A DNA stretch of 13,487 nt from the NCBI GenBank assembly GCA_964244895.1, contig CAXTKV010000151.1, positions 1 through 13,487 of the forward strand, given 5' to 3'. Shown here piece after piece: positions 6,001-12,000 of this stretch. How positions within the stretch are numbered: the first letter of the stretch is position 1; each line of letters opens with the position of its first letter. Position numbers: made by a program. This DNA comes from an uncultured Deinococcales bacterium (GTDB taxonomy: Bacteria > Deinococcota > Deinococci > Deinococcales > JAAFIG01).

Positions 6001-9000
6001 ACGCCCGACCGGGCAAAGGCTGTCCAGCACACGCGTTTGGAACGCACCCACCGCAAACCCGAGAAGGCTTATCGGTTCGGCCCGATCAAGGCGAGGCTCG
6101 AGCGTGCGGTTCGAGTGAATACGAGAAGACCGTCTGGGACAGTCACTAAGATTTGCGTCCTGGACGGTCTTCTTGGGGTTTTATCGGCGTTCTTCGTGCG
6201 CGGAGACGCCATCCACGAACACCACGAAGGTCGCCTCGCCGCGAACCTCGATCTCGGCCACCGTGATCGGCAAGCCGCCCTGCGCCTGAAGCGGCCCCTG
6301 GATCACGCGTTCGCCGTCCGCATCCGTCACGCGAACCTCGACGCTGACCGTGCCATACGTCGAAGGAATCGTCCATTCGAAGCTGACCCGGCGGCGTTCC
6401 GGTTCGGTCGGTGTCGTGGGCGTCGCTGGGGGTTCCGGCGTGACGTTGGTCGGCGTCGTGGGCGTCGTGGGCGGTTCCGGTACGACGTTCACGGGCGGCG
6501 GGGGCGTCGGTGGTGGTTCCGGCGTGGGCGTCGGCGTGGGTGTCGGCGCCGGTGGCGGCGTGATGACCTGCGCGGGTTGCGGCGCGGGCGGAACGGGTGG
6601 GCTGGGAATGTACGGCGTCTTGGCTTCCGGCGCGACCGTAATGGTCAAGGTCGCCTCGCCGCTCTCGGACACCAGCGTGTTCGGCGCGGGCGTCTGCTCG
6701 ATCACCACGCCCGGCTGCTGGCGCGTGGTGCTGCGTTCCCGCACCTCGACCAGCGTCAAACCCGACTTCTCGAGGATGAATTTGGCGTCCGACAGCGACA
6801 AGCCTTTCAGGTCCGGGATGAAGGTCTGACCGGGCGGTGCCGGATCGCCGGAGATCAGCAGCGTGACCTTGGAGCCTTTCGTGACTTCCGTTCCGGGCGG
6901 CGGGTTCTGCCCCAGGATCACGCCCTTCGGATCGCCGGGTTTGGAGGGCACGATCGCGATTCGGCCCGCGTCCAGACCGCGCTCTTTCAAGGTGAACAGC
7001 GCATCGCCCCTGGATTTGCTGGTCAGGTCGGGCACCTCGAGCGGTCGCGGTGAATTGACCGTGATCTCCACCACCCGAGATTCCGTCAGGGTCGTGCCGG
7101 ACGCCGGATTCTGCCGCAGAATCACGCCGCGCGGTTTGGTCTGATCGTCGCCCTGCGCCAACCGCGCCGTCAGACGCGCATTGGAAATCAGTTGCGCCGC
7201 GTCCTTCAGGGGCTTGCCGACCACGTTCGGCACGGTCACGACGGGCGGCTCGAGGAAACTCTGCGTAGCTCCCACGCCCAGATACCCGGCCAGCCCAAAA
7301 AAAATCAATCCTGGCAGCACGCCCCAGACCGTGATCTTGCGCCTGGGACGCGAAGCTGAAGGGTTCGCGCCGACCTGCGCGCTCGCGGCCTGAGCGGTAT
7401 TTCCGGGAGCCCGACCCGAAAACCCCCAACCCTTTCGGGCGGGCTTTCCGGGAGCCGCCAGCATCGCCCGGTTGAGGTTCGCGATTTCTTCCGGTGCGCG
7501 ATCCGCCAGGTGCAAGTCCGCCAGCACGGGTCGCGTCTCGCGGTTGTCCGCGTCCGAGAGCGCCACCACGCGCGCGTCCGACAGCGCGAAACCGTGCTCA
7601 GAGAGCGTGCCCGCCAGCGTTTCCAAACTCTTGCGGAAGGTTTCGTCGCGCGGGTGCGCCTGCAACCAGGCGCTCGCGCTGGTCGCGTTGGTCTGCTCCC
7701 AGACCGTGTAATACGAACCCGGTCGCGCCACCGCGTCCAGCATCAACGGTGAAGCCGCCACCTTGAGCGCCGTGCGGTACCGGTGAAAGTTCGAGCGGCT
7801 TTTCGGATCGGTCACGTTGAACACGTCCAGGCGCACGTTGCGCCCGTCGGGATGGCGCGCCTCTACGGCGCGTCTCGCCTCGTCGTGCTCGAGTTCGCGC
7901 AGTACGTCGTACTTGCCATCGAGTTTTCCGTCCCCGGTCATCCGAGGGTGGATTCTACCAGGGCTCCATGAGCCCACGGTATACAAAACCAACCCGGCTG
8001 ACGGTCAATTGAACTGGCGGAACCGGTGGGGTTCGAACCCACGAAACCTGAACGGGTTTCCCTCGTGAGCAACGGGGTGCAATCGGCCAACTCTGCCACG
8101 GTTCCGAGCGCCCTCGAGACTGCATTTGGCGGGCCAGGAGGGAGTCGAACCCTCAACGACACGATTTGGAAACGTGCTCCCCTCCCAGGGGGACGCTGTG
8201 CCCATGCGCGCCGGGAACGNNNNNNNNNNNNNNNNNNNNNNNNNNNNNNNNNNNNNNNNNNNNNNNNNNNNNNNNNNNNNNNNNNNNNNNNNNNNNNNNN
8301 NNNNNNNNNNNNNNNNNNNCCGGGGCAATATTCGCGCGCCGGGAACGACCGGGGCGACGTCCATGCTCGCAGAACACCGTCTGGCACGCGAATTCTTGAT
8401 TCTCGAGAAATGCGTCTACAACGGTGTTCCATTTGGAGGAAGGCGAGGGAATCGAACCCTCGAGCCCGCAGGCCAGGCGTTTTCAAGACGCTTTCCTCGT
8501 CCGTGCCGGACGCCTTCCGCTGGAGTCGAGAGAGGGAGTTTCACCCCCGTGAACCGGGTTGCAGCCGGTCGCCTGGTTCCTCGGCCATCTCGACATCAGT
8601 TTGTGCTCAAAATCATTTGGGAGAGAGGTGGGATTCGAACCCACACAAAGAGGCTGTCGCTTTCAGGAAAGGCGCTTCCTACGGCAAGTTACAAACCCAC
8701 TCGGGGTTCGTCACCCCGAGTCGCCAGCTAGTGCTTCCGCAACCCGCGACGGCTTTTGGCCCGCCTCATACCTGTTCGGTTTACCGGTTCATACCTTTTC
8801 CGGCGCGCTTATCCGTTTGCGATACTCCCTCCACATGGTGACGTGCGCGGGGCTCGAACCCGCTACTCGACGGTGTGAAAGACCGTTCGCTCGACTGCTT
8901 CGCGTTGCACGCCGTGAAAACTCGAGATACCCCGAGCCATGCGACTTGAGCCATCTCGAGCCGTGTGAGACTCGAGCATCCTCGAGCCGTTGGTGCAGCT

Positions 9001-12000
9001 TGCAGGGATCGAACCTGCGTGTCCAGTTTGGAAGACTGGTGCCTGAGCCATTCGGCCAAAGCTGCGTCAAGCCCGAAAACCTTCGGGCGGTGGTGCGCCG
9101 GGTGGGATTTGAACCCACACTGCCTTTCGGCCTCCTGGTTCTGAGCCAGGCGAGTTTGCCCGTTCCTCTACCAGCGCAAGGGAAGATCTGATGCTCCGAG
9201 CGGGAGTTGAACCCGCACTGGCCGCGTTCTCGACACGGTTCCTCTGCCAGTTGGGATACCGAAGCGTGGAGCGGTCGGACAGGATTTGCACCCGCGTTTC
9301 TCGAATGGAACTCGAGCGTCCTCTGTTGAACGACGACCGCACACCGATGGAGGTTCCGCTGGGAATCGAACCTGGATCAACTGTTTACCCTTGCCGGGGC
9401 AGGTTCAACCTGCTCCCGCCAGGGTACGAGACAGCCGCTCGCGCCCTCGAGCGACAGAACCGCGATGTATTTCAAAACGGAGCGCGTCTCGAGAACACCG
9501 TGTTTGACGACATTTCTTGAACATCGTCCCTGACGGTGTTCTCGAGCATGGTGGGTTCATTCGGATTCGAACCGAAACCTCGACGCTTAAAAGGCGTCTG
9601 CTCTACCAGTTGAGCTACGAACCCATCGTGCGTATGTACGTGGTGATCTCGTGCGTGTGTACGTGGTGATCTCGCGGGGAATCGAACCCCGATTTCCTGA
9701 TCGAGACTCAGGCGTCGTGAACCGTTGGACGACGAGACCGAAAACCCCTGCGGAAGCGGGTTGAGAACCCCTGCGTGAGCGGGTTGAGAACCCCTGCGTG
9801 AGCGGGTTAGACCCTGCGGGAGCGGGTATGGATGGGAAGCCAGGACTCGAACCTGGAACGCGAGGTTCAGAGCCTCGAGCGTTGCCACACGTCACTTCCC
9901 AGTGCGCCCCGAGGTAGCTCGAGGCTCTGGCAGGGGAGGTCAGATTCGAACTGACACGTGAACGGCTCCAAAGGCTCTGCTTCAAAGCCAAAACCTGGCG
10001 TCGTGCTTGCACGCTTGCGCGTGACGCCAGGATTTCGGCATGAAAAGCGCTGACCTACCGATTGGTCCACTCCCCAACATGGTCGAGAGATCTGGAATCG
10101 AACCAGAACCTTCCGTGCTTCAGACGGACGCGCAAACCGTTTACGCAATCTCTCGGGGTTGCGGCGGTCGTTCCCGCCGCAGATGGCTGCTTTGGCGGTC
10201 GTTCCCGCCGCACAATCTGGTTGCGGCGTCGAGAGTCGAACTCGAGGCGCGAGGTTATGGGCCTCGCTGCGTCACCGGACGCGCGCCACATCAAAAAACA
10301 CCGTTCTGGGCGCATTCTCGAGAACACCGTACTGGACGGTGTTCGTGGGGAACGCTGGTTGAAGGCACAGGACTCGAACCTGTATGGCCCGTGCATCAGA
10401 CGGGAATCCTGACCATTGGATGAGCCTTCAAAACCTACTCGGATATGGAGAAAATGCTCGAGGATCTGGTAGGCGCGGAGGGATTCGAACCCCCAACCCT
10501 GTTCTTGTAAGGAACTCGCGCTTCCGTTGCGCCACGCGCCCGCGTGTGTATCGCGCCCGAGACGAATCTTGGGGCGCGACCACGATGGTGGATTCCGGTC
10601 GGACTCGAACCGACATTCTCCGGGTGCAAACCGGATGTCCTCCCGTTGGACGACAGACCCACGATGCAACCTTCTTGTATCGCGCTGGCTGCTGGCGCAC
10701 TGGTAGGAGATGCAGGAATCGAACCTGCCTGTTGTCCGGTATCCGAAACCGGAGACTCCCCTTGAGTCCGATCTCCTGCGCGTCCCGGAATCTCGAGCCG
10801 GGACTGCCCGACCGATCATCCACGGTGGGGTCAACGAGAACGCGTTGGTGGGACTGGAAGGCGTCGAACCTTCACCTCGGCGGGTAAGAACCGCCTGCTC
10901 TGCCGTTTGAGCTACAGGCCCGTTGGTGCGGAAGCTGGGAGTCGCACCCAGATCGCCTGCTTGGCACGCAGGCGTCCTACTCTTGAACGACTTCCGCGTT
11001 CGCTCGAGGGTGGCTCGAGCGTTTCTAACTGGTGATCCCGGCTGGACTCGAACCAGCGTCCTCGACCTTCGCACGGTCGCGCCCGTCCATCTGGGCCTCG
11101 AGATCAGGGTGTTCAATATCTGGTGCCCCCGGCAGGATTTGAACCCGCACGCGTCGAGGTAGAAGCTCGATGCTCTGTTCCAGTTGAGCTACGAGGGCGG
11201 GTGATGGTGAGCCGGGCAGGATTCGAACCTGCAATCGCCACGTTCGAAGCGTGGTGCTGTGTCCGGTTGAGCTACCGGCTCGAGAACGTTCATCGCGCCG
11301 TACCGAATAGACAGTAAGAACGTCCTGAACGGTGTTGCTGGCGGCTCTGGAGGGAGTTGAACCCTCGATCTCCCGATAGACAGTCGGGCGTCCACTCCTG
11401 GCTGGACCACAAAGCCATGCCGAGACGGTTTTTCATCGCGCCTCACGGTGCTGGCTGACGAGGCAGGGCTCGAACCTGCGACGACCCGATGAACAGTCGG
11501 GCGCTCTACCAACTGAGCTACTCGTCAATGCTGGCCGAGAGACGGGTTCTGGCGCGATGTTTGGGAACTTCGCCTCGAGCCTCGAAAACTGAGACGATTC
11601 GTGCCAAGTTTCGACACGTTCTGGTGGGCAGGACAGGACTCGAACCTGTGAGGTCATAGACGCTTGATCTACAGTCAAGTGCAATCGCCGCTCTGCCACC
11701 TGCCCAGAGCTCGAGTTCTTAGGCTCGGGTATTCCGCTTTTCGTGGTGATATGGCCCCATATCACCACGTTTTGCGGTCTGCTGGTATCTAAATTGTCAA
11801 TGTGCGCGGTTTCTGGGAACCTCTGGGTTGAACGCCGGGAATTGCACCCGAATCTCCAGGTTCACGACCTGGCGTCCTGACTTTTGGACGACGAACAACA
11901 CGAACGGTGCAAAACAAAAAGAACTCGAGCCTGAACTTGCGCTCAGGCTCGAGGAGGAATCCTTGACCTGAGAAACTAAACGGTGACCACCTGCCGCGCG

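Follow-up and report, generated by a model that had tools for sequence, protein, structure and literature searches.

Why a bacterium should keep a second, densely packed set of tRNA genes, and how such a set could be held in reserve and switched on, are the questions raised by a locus of an uncultured Deinococcales bacterium. The purpose and switching of long tRNA arrays are known for one case, that of Anabaena. The stretch of DNA analysed here (the window) is 13,487 nucleotides long, and all genes and signals described below lie on its minus strand unless stated otherwise. Judged from its sequence, the whole region is probably a single non-coding operon that can be induced, a long (L-type) array kept throughout the family as a back-up set.

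The 24-tRNA array of the preliminary description and its 24 ARAGORN calls (8015-11705) were reproduced, except that one call, a Gln-TTG on the plus strand (9077-9160), is an artefact antisense to Leu-CAG (9091-9177), which leaves 23 true ARAGORN genes (8015..11705), all on the minus strand. Their order is Tyr, Asn, Asp, Arg, Arg, Arg, Gly, Lys, Pro, Ala, Val, Ile, Met, Phe, Gln, Glu, Lys, Leu, Leu, Gly, Cys, Ser, Ser. Earlier statements that the genes cover 17 amino acids, that nearly all encode the CCA end (21 of 23) and that they have low identity to same-anticodon housekeeping tRNAs (recomputed as 0.52-0.76 for the 19 of 23 genes that have such a counterpart) were borne out. The supposed confinement of Gly-GCC and Lys-TTT to the array most likely reflects an assembly gap, as housekeeping-type copies outside the array were found for each of them in five of five relatives tested.

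Rfam added 11827-11898 and 9271-9340 above cut-off, and 9351-9461 and 8131-8203 below it. By reading and folding, six degenerate genes were recognized, two of which (Gln-TTG and Thr) carry one hairpin insertion apiece. The tRNA-His(GTG) gene (11824..11898; Rfam 42.2 bits) has C33, A37 and two acceptor mismatches; His-GTG is the first array gene in relatives. In tRNA-Gln(TTG) (9928..10076), found at the homologous position in relatives, a hairpin of about 70 nt, part of it similar to a repeat found at another place of the genome, separates the D arm from the anticodon loop. The tRNA-Thr gene (9348..9461, the longer sub-cut-off Rfam match) has a hairpin of about 39 nt in its anticodon loop, which is strain-specific because a near strain (run X1) lacks 9385-9425. 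The others are tRNA-Gly(TCC) (9267..9340; Rfam 31.5 bits), a tRNA-Glu(TTC)-like gene (8836..8913) called by neither ARAGORN nor Rfam, and a divergent, sub-cut-off tRNA-Trp(CCA) (8127..8203) with a Trp-CCA at the same place in relatives. A scaffold gap of 100 N (8220..8319, no strand) lies within a spacer; no tRNA gene seems to have been lost in it, since across 8198-8411 the near strain carries different sequence of about 50 letters, too short for such a gene. Altogether about 29 tRNA or tRNA-like genes, standing for all 20 amino acids, are packed non-periodically into 3.9 kb on one strand and are supernumerary to the scattered housekeeping set, both of which are features of L-arrays. Between His and Tyr there is a conserved TTGACAA motif (11794..11804; also in L021, L022, L024 and L026), which may be read either as an rRNA-type boxA antitermination site or as an internal -35 box.

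Eighteen relatives exist, and DNA was fetched from 16. Long arrays with the same order were present in 14 of these 16, in agreement with the family conservation claimed before. A tree built on the concatenation of ten array tRNAs recovered genera g2, g4 and g5 with support of 100 each, and in the single-contig relative G018 the array coexists with a complete set of scattered tRNA genes. Both observations support the earlier view of an old, vertically kept spare set. The array unit also appears to move, because the flanking genes differ between genera, and because Calidithermus chliarophilus (record L100) has the same 215-nt RNA (see below) in a separate array of different gene order, which also has an HNH gene. 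In seven of the fetched relatives' loci Ro60 adjoins the array, which there ends in the Ro60 gene and carries Y-like RNAs (GNCGAA motif) in its spacers. The window array lacks Leu-TAG, Leu-CAA and Leu-TAA and contains insertions, and its genome was found to be without array Y-like RNAs and Ro60; the window copy is thus partly eroded and may be decaying. Insertions, lost genes, changing flanks and cargo, and genome repeats in the spacers (one spacer has 222 matches outside the contig) could even suggest that the whole array is a silent, slowly decaying relic of an old mobile element. This is quite improbable, as order, leader, terminator and an RNA structure with compensatory changes are kept across five genera, and 21 of 23 CCA ends are intact.

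How expression of such a back-up set could be controlled is suggested by the DNA preceding it. A sigma-70-type promoter candidate (TAGACA, 18 nt, TACGAT; 12160..12189) matches in 9 of 12 positions. It is weak by itself because 0.6 such sites are expected by chance; no other promoter-like site was seen within 7900-12400, and the relatives' leaders are likewise preceded by similar -35/-10 pairs. It is followed by a Shine-Dalgarno-like GAGGTG (12147-12152) and a leader ORF of 53 codons (11976..12137), which uses 19 amino acids (no Trp) and whose product had no match in a Pfam search. Counterparts of this ORF, predicted to be translatable and provided with a ribosome-binding site, were found in all 14 arrays with upstream DNA (48-72 codons, 18-20 amino acids). 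Twenty-five nt upstream of the first tRNA gene of the window sits an intrinsic terminator with a 13-bp stem and a U tract (11914..11953; -24.5 kcal/mol), whose 5' arm can alternatively pair with the segment following the stop codon in a predicted antiterminator (11941..11975; -14.6 kcal/mol). The leader peptides barely align, and still the distance from stop codon to terminator is 19-25 nt in 14 of 14 leaders from five genera. These 14 leaders are kin and amount to about five independent lineages.

The window pairing was equalled in stability by one of 500 shuffles and was better than that of every 17-nt window of the leader ORF. Among the 14 leaders, nine beat their shuffles (p<0.05), and the others are the four of genus g2 (p 0.46-0.65) and L022 (p 0.062). 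Pairing was stronger within genomes (-9.9 kcal/mol) than across genomes (-7.4 kcal/mol). In simulated folding of nascent transcripts, each with 200 nt of context, 0.44-0.87 of the terminator arm was taken up by the post-stop segment in all 14 leaders; with the stop region blocked, 0.22-0.80 of the arm was still paired with other upstream bases. At equilibrium the terminator won, with a probability of 0.75-0.99 without and 0.69-0.99 with a ribosome, and because it prevails in either case the switch would have to be kinetic. Combined over one leader per genus, amino acid diversity was high (p=0.012 versus random codons and 0.0006 versus genes), and codon diversity exceeded that of genes and mostly not that of random sequence. 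The pN/pS values were 0.46 (genus g2), 0.76 (g4) and 1.23 (g5).

These properties suggest that the leader is, with somewhat better than even probability, a whiB7-like ribosome-sensing attenuator, whose stop switch probably opens upon slowing of ribosomes. The use under translation trouble that had been proposed before thus gains support from an element absent from that proposal. Control of the array by a transcription factor, with the ORF and terminator incidental or setting the basal level only, appears improbable. It would have a precedent in TrcR of Anabaena, as far as the available part of PMC10272220 goes, and a palindrome, GCTTAG-N7-CTAAGC, lies just upstream of the -35 box in most relatives; inspection by eye of the DNA before the Calidithermus array revealed no such leader, and repeated palindromes instead. 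However, the window has only a half-site, a pattern search of its genome for the palindrome gave no match, and a transcription factor leaves the fixed stop-to-terminator distance unexplained.

If the array is released by such an attenuator, the question is what distinguishes its tRNAs. The anticodon loops quoted in the preliminary description were all correct. Pyrimidine-37, presented there as a family trait, was not confirmed as such: it occurs in 3 of 23 genes in the window and in 17 of 314 array genes of relatives. Asp U37 is the sole conserved case; Asn C37 (0 of 13 relatives' genes) and Ser-GCT C37 (0 of 12) are private to the window genome, and the near strain has A37 at 8067. What changes consistently is the purine at position 37, which is swapped. 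G37, carried by each of the 11 housekeeping tRNAs with an NNG anticodon, is found in none of the six ARAGORN-called NNG genes of the window array and in none of 77 in relatives' arrays, where G37 is replaced by A37 after G36, and conversely A37 has become G37 in Phe (14 of 14) and Tyr (12 of 13). The swap is partly common to phage arrays. With two of the three pyrimidines private and the real pattern fitting another reading equally, evasion of anticodon nucleases by pyrimidine-37 loops is unsupported as formulated.

The purine swap is compatible equally well with nuclease escape and with independence from position-37 modifying enzymes. A reserve against tRNases, its loops shaped by selection for evasion of anticodon nucleases (VapC, PrrC, colicin-like), is a possibility to which we give rather low odds. 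It has been published as a hypothesis for phages (available part of PMC10264068), and fits with 170 of 257 relatives' array loops differing from the window genome's housekeeping loop, with Phe G37 being common to T5, a mycobacterial plasmid array, Anabaena and G171, with A37 after G36 matching T5 in four of five cases, and with 11 PIN-domain matches in the window genome. Against it, no nuclease of the lineage has a known target, Asn and Ser C37 are confined to this genome, the loop of Lys-TTT, which PrrC attacks, is of the usual kind in all 13 relatives' genes, and in Anabaena the array tRNAs themselves are reported to be cleaved, according to the accessible part of PMC8421152. Similarly doubtful is that the swap frees the set from modification at position 37 (m1G37 by TrmD, i6A37 by MiaA), which would matter when modification falls behind a sudden burst of tRNA synthesis or cofactors are short. 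Both the near-absolute swap and the C38 of several array Cys, Trp and Leu-CAA genes agree with it; on the other hand, TrmD is encoded in the window genome, many array loops retain A37-A38 and with it a need for t6A or i6A, and the broken Gln-TTG has kept G37.

Within the array, directly after the Glu-TTC gene, as also in L021 and L023, lies a 215-nt tRNA-framed RNA of an unannotated family (8617..8831). It has acceptor, D and T arms, a 4-bp anticodon arm with an A-rich loop and, at the position of the variable arm, a multi-helix insert of about 140 nt, into which the anticodon-arm loop pairs in the model. Two-sided changes were found in 26 of 56 pairs when the copies were aligned with plain MAFFT (0 of 500 shuffles), and in 48 of 56 when phage copies were included in an alignment fitted to the model. 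The invariant core is GGTTGCGGAWGCAC...GGGAAGCGCGTTT, locked to the AAAC anticodon-arm loop. The RNA occurs alone in 13 genomes of a sister family and within phage tRNA clusters, including those of cultured Streptomyces phages (e.g. Streptomyces phage Gilson).

No Rfam family matched it at cut-off. manA RNA (RF01745) was rejected, as it scored 17.4 bits (cut-off 55.2) and aligned with the 3' end only; an intron-containing tRNA was rejected because removal of the insert, which is 3' of a closed 4-bp hairpin, would not leave a 5-bp stem with a 7-nt loop, and because Rfam shows no intron family and thus no group I or II core; and tmRNA was rejected on the full D stem, the missing tag reading frame and an Rfam score under 47. 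That the 215-nt RNA rescues ribosomes after charging with alanine, in the manner of a tmRNA domain that lacks a reading frame, is unlikely. G3.U70, mostly with A73 and CCA, is present in 19 of 22 Deinococcota-type copies, and stand-alone copies give weak tmRNA-model matches (16-21 bits), but G3.U70 is found in only 10 of 24 copies of the wider set and is absent from the window copy, the D stem is complete and covaries, a normal tmRNA is also encoded in the genome, and no stop codon is common to all copies (best 15 of 22). The favoured guess, if short of probable, is that the RNA mimics the shape of a tRNA and serves proteins of tRNA damage and repair as a decoy or scaffold.

Taken together, a mechanism can be proposed. 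During smooth translation of the leader, the ribosome at the stop codon would cover the next dozen bases, the terminator would fold and transcription would stop ahead of the first tRNA gene. When almost any charged tRNA is scarce, or ribosomes are stalled by drugs, the ribosome would lag in the near-pan-amino-acid leader, the antiterminator would fold first and RNA polymerase would enter the array. The recognition determinants of TrmD and MiaA lie in the context of position 37. The swapped purines would remove these sites and alter the loops read by nucleases, therefore the spare tRNAs should function even where the housekeeping tRNAs lack their modification or have been cleaved. The 215-nt RNA would be cut out in the manner of a tRNA and would not decode, because the loop of its anticodon arm is engaged by the insert. 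It is conceivable, and we suggest it with reserve, that this is a chromosomal operon for tRNA crises, in which an attenuator senses slow decoding and releases a full set of modification-independent, nuclease-shifted tRNAs together with a large tRNA-framed RNA of a new and active class; in that event the core of the 215-nt RNA might, just as tentatively, act in translation rescue or tRNA defence, in bacteria and large phages alike.

This kind of array is already known, although Deinococcota were scored as having only accretive arrays in the survey (PMC8421152). The predicted attenuator and the 215-nt RNA appear to be unreported: a literature search, with most subscription papers outside its reach, returned no description of attenuation of tRNA genes or of such an RNA. 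The attenuator, if true, would be a second, protein-free answer to array switching, and the complete G37/A37 swap would allow two standing ideas on mobile tRNAs, nuclease escape and modification independence, to be put to a clear test. Structure and partners of the 215-nt RNA are open to study at once, because cultured hosts (Calidithermus chliarophilus, Streptomyces phage Gilson) have members.

The 215-nt RNA shares with the tRNA-like domain of tmRNA (RF00023) the T arm and, in most Deinococcota copies, the G3.U70/A73/CCA acceptor, but has a D stem, no tag frame and a score far below cut-off. Like manA RNA, described as marine and cis-regulatory (PMC2864571), it is about 200 nt long with a 3' end resembling T arm plus acceptor strand. 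T4 RNA C/D and T5 RNA1/RNA2 are also function-unassigned tRNA-like RNAs among tRNA genes; none matched the 215-nt model above plain-tRNA level. With GNCGAA RNAs and Ro60, the relatives' arrays resemble Ro60 (Rsr)/Y RNA loci (PMC4201824) and RNA repair operons, from which they differ in that RtcB is elsewhere in the genomes; the window genome has neither Ro60 nor Y-like RNAs. Phage tRNA clusters show some of the same changes, with A37 partly present after G36 and G37 partly present in Phe (available part of PMC10264068), whereas here the swap is complete (G37 in 0 of 77).

The leader resembles that of mycobacterial whiB7 and amino-acid operon attenuators in its promoter, near-all-amino-acid uORF and antiterminator opposed to an intrinsic terminator. 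The whiB7 uORF encodes 19 amino acids and follows the same published attenuation logic, according to the part of 10.1101/2023.06.02.543512 that was accessible; unlike there, tRNA genes would be controlled here, and the predicted antiterminator begins directly after the stop codon. The trn operon of Anabaena PCC 7120 is likewise a long co-oriented supernumerary set with pseudogenes and Phe G37. Its L-array is silent and induced by translational stress, with 23 of 26 tRNAs charged (PMC8421152); stress induction is proposed for both, in the window as a prediction from sequence. The array described here differs in its gene order, its family-wide occurrence with a genus-congruent tree, the presence of the 215-nt RNA and, judging from the accessible part of PMC10272220, its predicted leader attenuator in place of the repressor TrcR.

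Within 8015-11705, 24 tRNA genes were called by ARAGORN. The Gln-TTG call on the plus strand is the antisense of Leu-CAG and not a gene, and the 24 array tRNAs of the preliminary description are thus reduced to 23 minus-strand genes, which cover 17 amino acids; its count of 21 encoded CCA ends holds, with 23 rather than 24 as denominator. Array-wide divergence from the housekeeping tRNAs (the scattered set outside the array) of the same anticodon was also found, with identities of 0.52-0.76 where 0.50-0.76 had been reported. Rfam combined with folding revealed six further, degenerate genes (His, Gln-TTG, Thr, Gly-TCC, Glu-TTC and Trp). 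Taken together with the 23, these extend the operon to all 20 amino acids.

ARAGORN made 46 additional calls on other contigs of the same genome, and Gly-GCC and Lys-TTT were absent from them. It had been proposed that these two anticodons are confined to the array. Housekeeping-type copies of Gly-GCC were present in all five relatives tested, as were those of Lys-TTT, so that their absence most likely reflects a gap in the assembly (91% complete, 328 contigs); for the relatives, the array as the only source of Lys-UUU or Gly-GCC was ruled out. The housekeeping tRNA-Lys(TTT) of a single-contig relative (G018:C1:2198321-2198393) and of relatives in genus g2 has an odd T loop (GGATCGT). A second mini-array of three divergent tRNA genes (one unassignable, Ser-TGA and Thr-TGT) lies elsewhere in the window's own genome (G000:C178:10382-10614, fetched as L226:4383-4615). 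The relatives' arrays contain Leu tRNAs (Leu-TAG, Leu-CAA, Leu-TAA, Leu-GAG) of 74-79 nt that lack the long variable arm, as does the Anabaena array.

The anticodon loop sequences quoted previously for array and housekeeping tRNAs were all correct. A pyrimidine at position 37, which had been regarded as a trait of the array, was found in only 3 of 23 genes in the window and in 17 of 314 in the arrays of relatives. U37 of Asp is conserved (9/9), whereas C37 does not recur in the relatives' Asn (0/13) or Ser-GCT (0/12) genes, and Ser-GCT of a closely related strain (run X1) has A37. The consistent change is a swap of purines, not a change to pyrimidines. G36 is followed by G37 in 11 of 11 housekeeping tRNAs, in none of six such genes in the window's array and in none of 77 in those of relatives (72 A37 and 5 C37, counted by hand from the loop table); G37 is found in array Phe (14/14) and Tyr (12/13). 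The TrmD site is G36-G37, and the MiaA site is A36-A37-A38. The swap might therefore render the array independent of modification at position 37, a reading that we hold only tentatively. It is compatible with escape from nucleases, an equally tentative explanation, for which loop changes in phage tRNAs, proposed to have this role in a passage of PMC10264068, and the 11 PIN domains of the window's genome can be cited. TrmD is encoded in that genome as well, and the loop data fit both readings alike without separating them. A term search of PMC12803027 returned nothing on loops or leaders in the text covered. Other arrays have the purine swap in part: G37 follows G36 in 1/5 genes of T5, 2/4 of phage IkeLoa, 4/7 of a Mycolicibacterium plasmid, 4/7 of Anabaena and 2/5 of genome G171, and Phe has G37 in four of these five.

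A DNA search matched 17 of the 18 relatives in the family, and regions were fetched from 16. Long arrays with the same gene order were found in 14 of these, in agreement with the family-wide conservation noted before; of the other two, one retains a fragment of two genes and the other a detached Asp-Ile pair alone. When ten array tRNAs were concatenated for each of 15 genomes, the resulting tree, built for the array alone, recovered the genera g2, g4 and g5 with support of 100. Flanking genes are common only to parts of a genus, and the PASTA-domain and aldose-epimerase neighbours of the window recurred in none of the fetched loci. In genus g4 (L038-L040) the Asp-(Glu)-Ile genes have been relocated from the array to a separate locus. 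A record of Calidithermus chliarophilus (L100) carries a 17-gene array with a different order and an HNH gene. Two long stretches within this array (L100:~6890-7075 and ~4310-4500) are mutually inverted copies, one of them within a tRNA-like frame. A protein of ~270 amino acids without a Pfam match directly follows tRNA-Asp in L024 (10437-11243), L023 (6812-7789) and L100 (5649-6449); the first two cluster by blastp, and the third is alike by eye only. The window's array is a genuine member of the L type, a kind already known. In the part of the PMC8421152 survey that scores the phylum, Deinococcus-Thermus is listed with accretive arrays only, and the long arrays described here extend it.

The operon of the window is a reduced version of that of the family. 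TROVE (Ro60) matches were obtained in 8 of the 18 relatives, seven directly 3' of fetched arrays and the eighth behind a Trp-Ser fragment, and the spacers of relatives' arrays contain RNAs with the GNCGAA motif, which a section of PMC4201824 describes as a Y RNA motif. The window's array has neither, and three Leu genes were lost from it. Its Thr and Gln-TTG genes carry hairpin insertions; that in Thr is missing from the near strain, which rules out a spliced intron. The spacers 10291-10355, 9462-9548 and 8330-8433 consist of a genome-wide palindromic repeat (AACACCGT...ACGGTGTT) with 47-222 matches outside the contig. RtcB was not seen at an array among the matches listed. Just before the Ro60 gene, L021 (~6616-6900), L023 (~3405-3600), L025 (~5213-5400) and L230 (three copies) have tRNA-shaped genes with CCA-type ends, a permuted Y-RNA stem between the D arm and the anticodon arm, and loops reading TCT, CAT or, in L021, TCA. 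The leader and a 215-nt RNA have been kept in the window.

This RNA (8617-8831, minus strand), the best-conserved DNA of the array in the search of relatives, is not a tRNA gene. It combines an acceptor stem and a canonical T arm with a D stem and an anticodon arm of 4 bp each; the loop of the anticodon arm is A-rich, and nested helices that span ~140 nt occupy the position of the variable arm. In a MAFFT alignment of 16 copies, from which the 56-pair structure was also drawn, two-sided changes occur in 26 of the 56 pairs and 95.5% of cells pair, a result equalled by none of 500 shuffles; with phage copies, in an alignment fitted to the model, the number rises to 48/56. The base after the A run of the loop pairs with the base before the core U run in 22/22 copies; only in the window's copy has this pair changed on both sides (C-G to G-C), which suggests that the anticodon-arm loop is tied into the insert. 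G3.U70 is present in 19 of 22 Deinococcota-type copies and in 10 of 24 of a wider set; the copies of the window, G010 and G171 have C73 instead. In one Rfam scan the best 150 of 214 matches were all tRNA. Rfam holds no family for this RNA: the best matches (tmRNA, manA, tRNA-Sec) were weak and below cut-off, and these families were rejected, as were T4 RNA C/D and the T5 stable RNAs, which gave no match. The one plain tRNA-model match coincided with the tRNA frame of a short copy, and a normal tmRNA is encoded elsewhere in the genome. A literature search, including the manA passages of PMC2864571, found no paper on it. We are nearly certain that the 215-nt RNA represents a real structured family. 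Its function is most likely that of a putative non-decoding tRNA-shaped decoy or scaffold, an assignment in which we have limited confidence.

Full-length copies occur in 10 of the 19 genomes of the window's family, in L100 and in 13 of 125 genomes of the sister family f2, where they are confined to the largest genus, probably Deinococcus. No fetched neighbourhood of an f2 copy contained tRNA genes, and several of these copies have a terminator-like hairpin of their own. Family f5 yielded one degenerate copy. An 18-mer gave 119 genome matches, 7 of them full-length copies and the rest chance. In viral contigs, strict 20-mer and two-gap patterns found no copy, but looser ones did. With one of these, 17 of 24 matches scored 47-92 bits at 156-271 nt with the covariance model, on whose scale plain tRNAs reach ~45 bits; with a second, 8 copies were found among 80 loci tested out of 120, four on the same contigs as the first. 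The copies from the first of these patterns mostly sit among tRNA genes. A single copy was matched by 27 Streptomyces phage records, and the copy in Streptomyces phage Gilson (58.9 bits) is unannotated. The window's own copy had no blastn match among plasmids and named phages.

Upstream of His, on the minus strand, lie the only promoter-like site of the region (12189-12160), an ORF of 53 codons (12137-11976) that has a Shine-Dalgarno-like site, and a terminator with a 13-bp stem (11953-11924). In each of the 14 arrays for which upstream DNA was available (the window and 13 loci), the terminator is preceded by an ORF of 48-72 codons that stops 19-25 nt before it; the peptides are barely alignable between genera. 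The bases following the stop pair with the 5' arm of the terminator at p<0.05 against shuffles in nine of the 14 leaders and at p=0.062 in one; four closely related g2 leaders gave no signal. The mean pairing energy was -9.9 kcal/mol within genomes versus -7.4 kcal/mol between genomes. In models of a growing transcript whose 3' end lies in the terminator loop (200 nt context), the post-stop segment holds 0.44-0.87 of the arm, whereas in the finished hairpin the terminator is predicted to prevail with or without a modelled ribosome. Any switch would thus need to be kinetic. Every leader uses 18-20 amino acids, and for one leader per genus, picked by us, the combined p for this coverage was 0.012 in comparison with random codons and 0.0006 in comparison with the genes of the genome. 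Selected codon diversity was rejected, since 11 of 14 leaders did not exceed random sequence. A simple count of CNN codons (9-17 of 48-72) was not striking enough for a TrmD sensor. The pN/pS values of the leaders (0.46 in g2, 0.76 in g4 and 1.23 in g5) fit selection for being translated more than for the peptide. In relatives (e.g. L030, L034, L036, L026-L028) a palindrome, GCTTAG-N7-CTAAGC, a candidate operator, precedes the -35 box by ~10 nt; the window has only a half-site, near 12200-12206.

On balance, we favour the reading of the array as an attenuator-gated back-up for failing translation. A literature search for attenuation of tRNA genes found no paper. The closest published mechanism, judged from part of the preprint, is the whiB7 uORF (bioRxiv 10.1101/2023.06.02.543512). 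The Anabaena array is controlled by a repressor, according to a portion of PMC10272220, whereas for the array of the window a leader attenuator is proposed instead.
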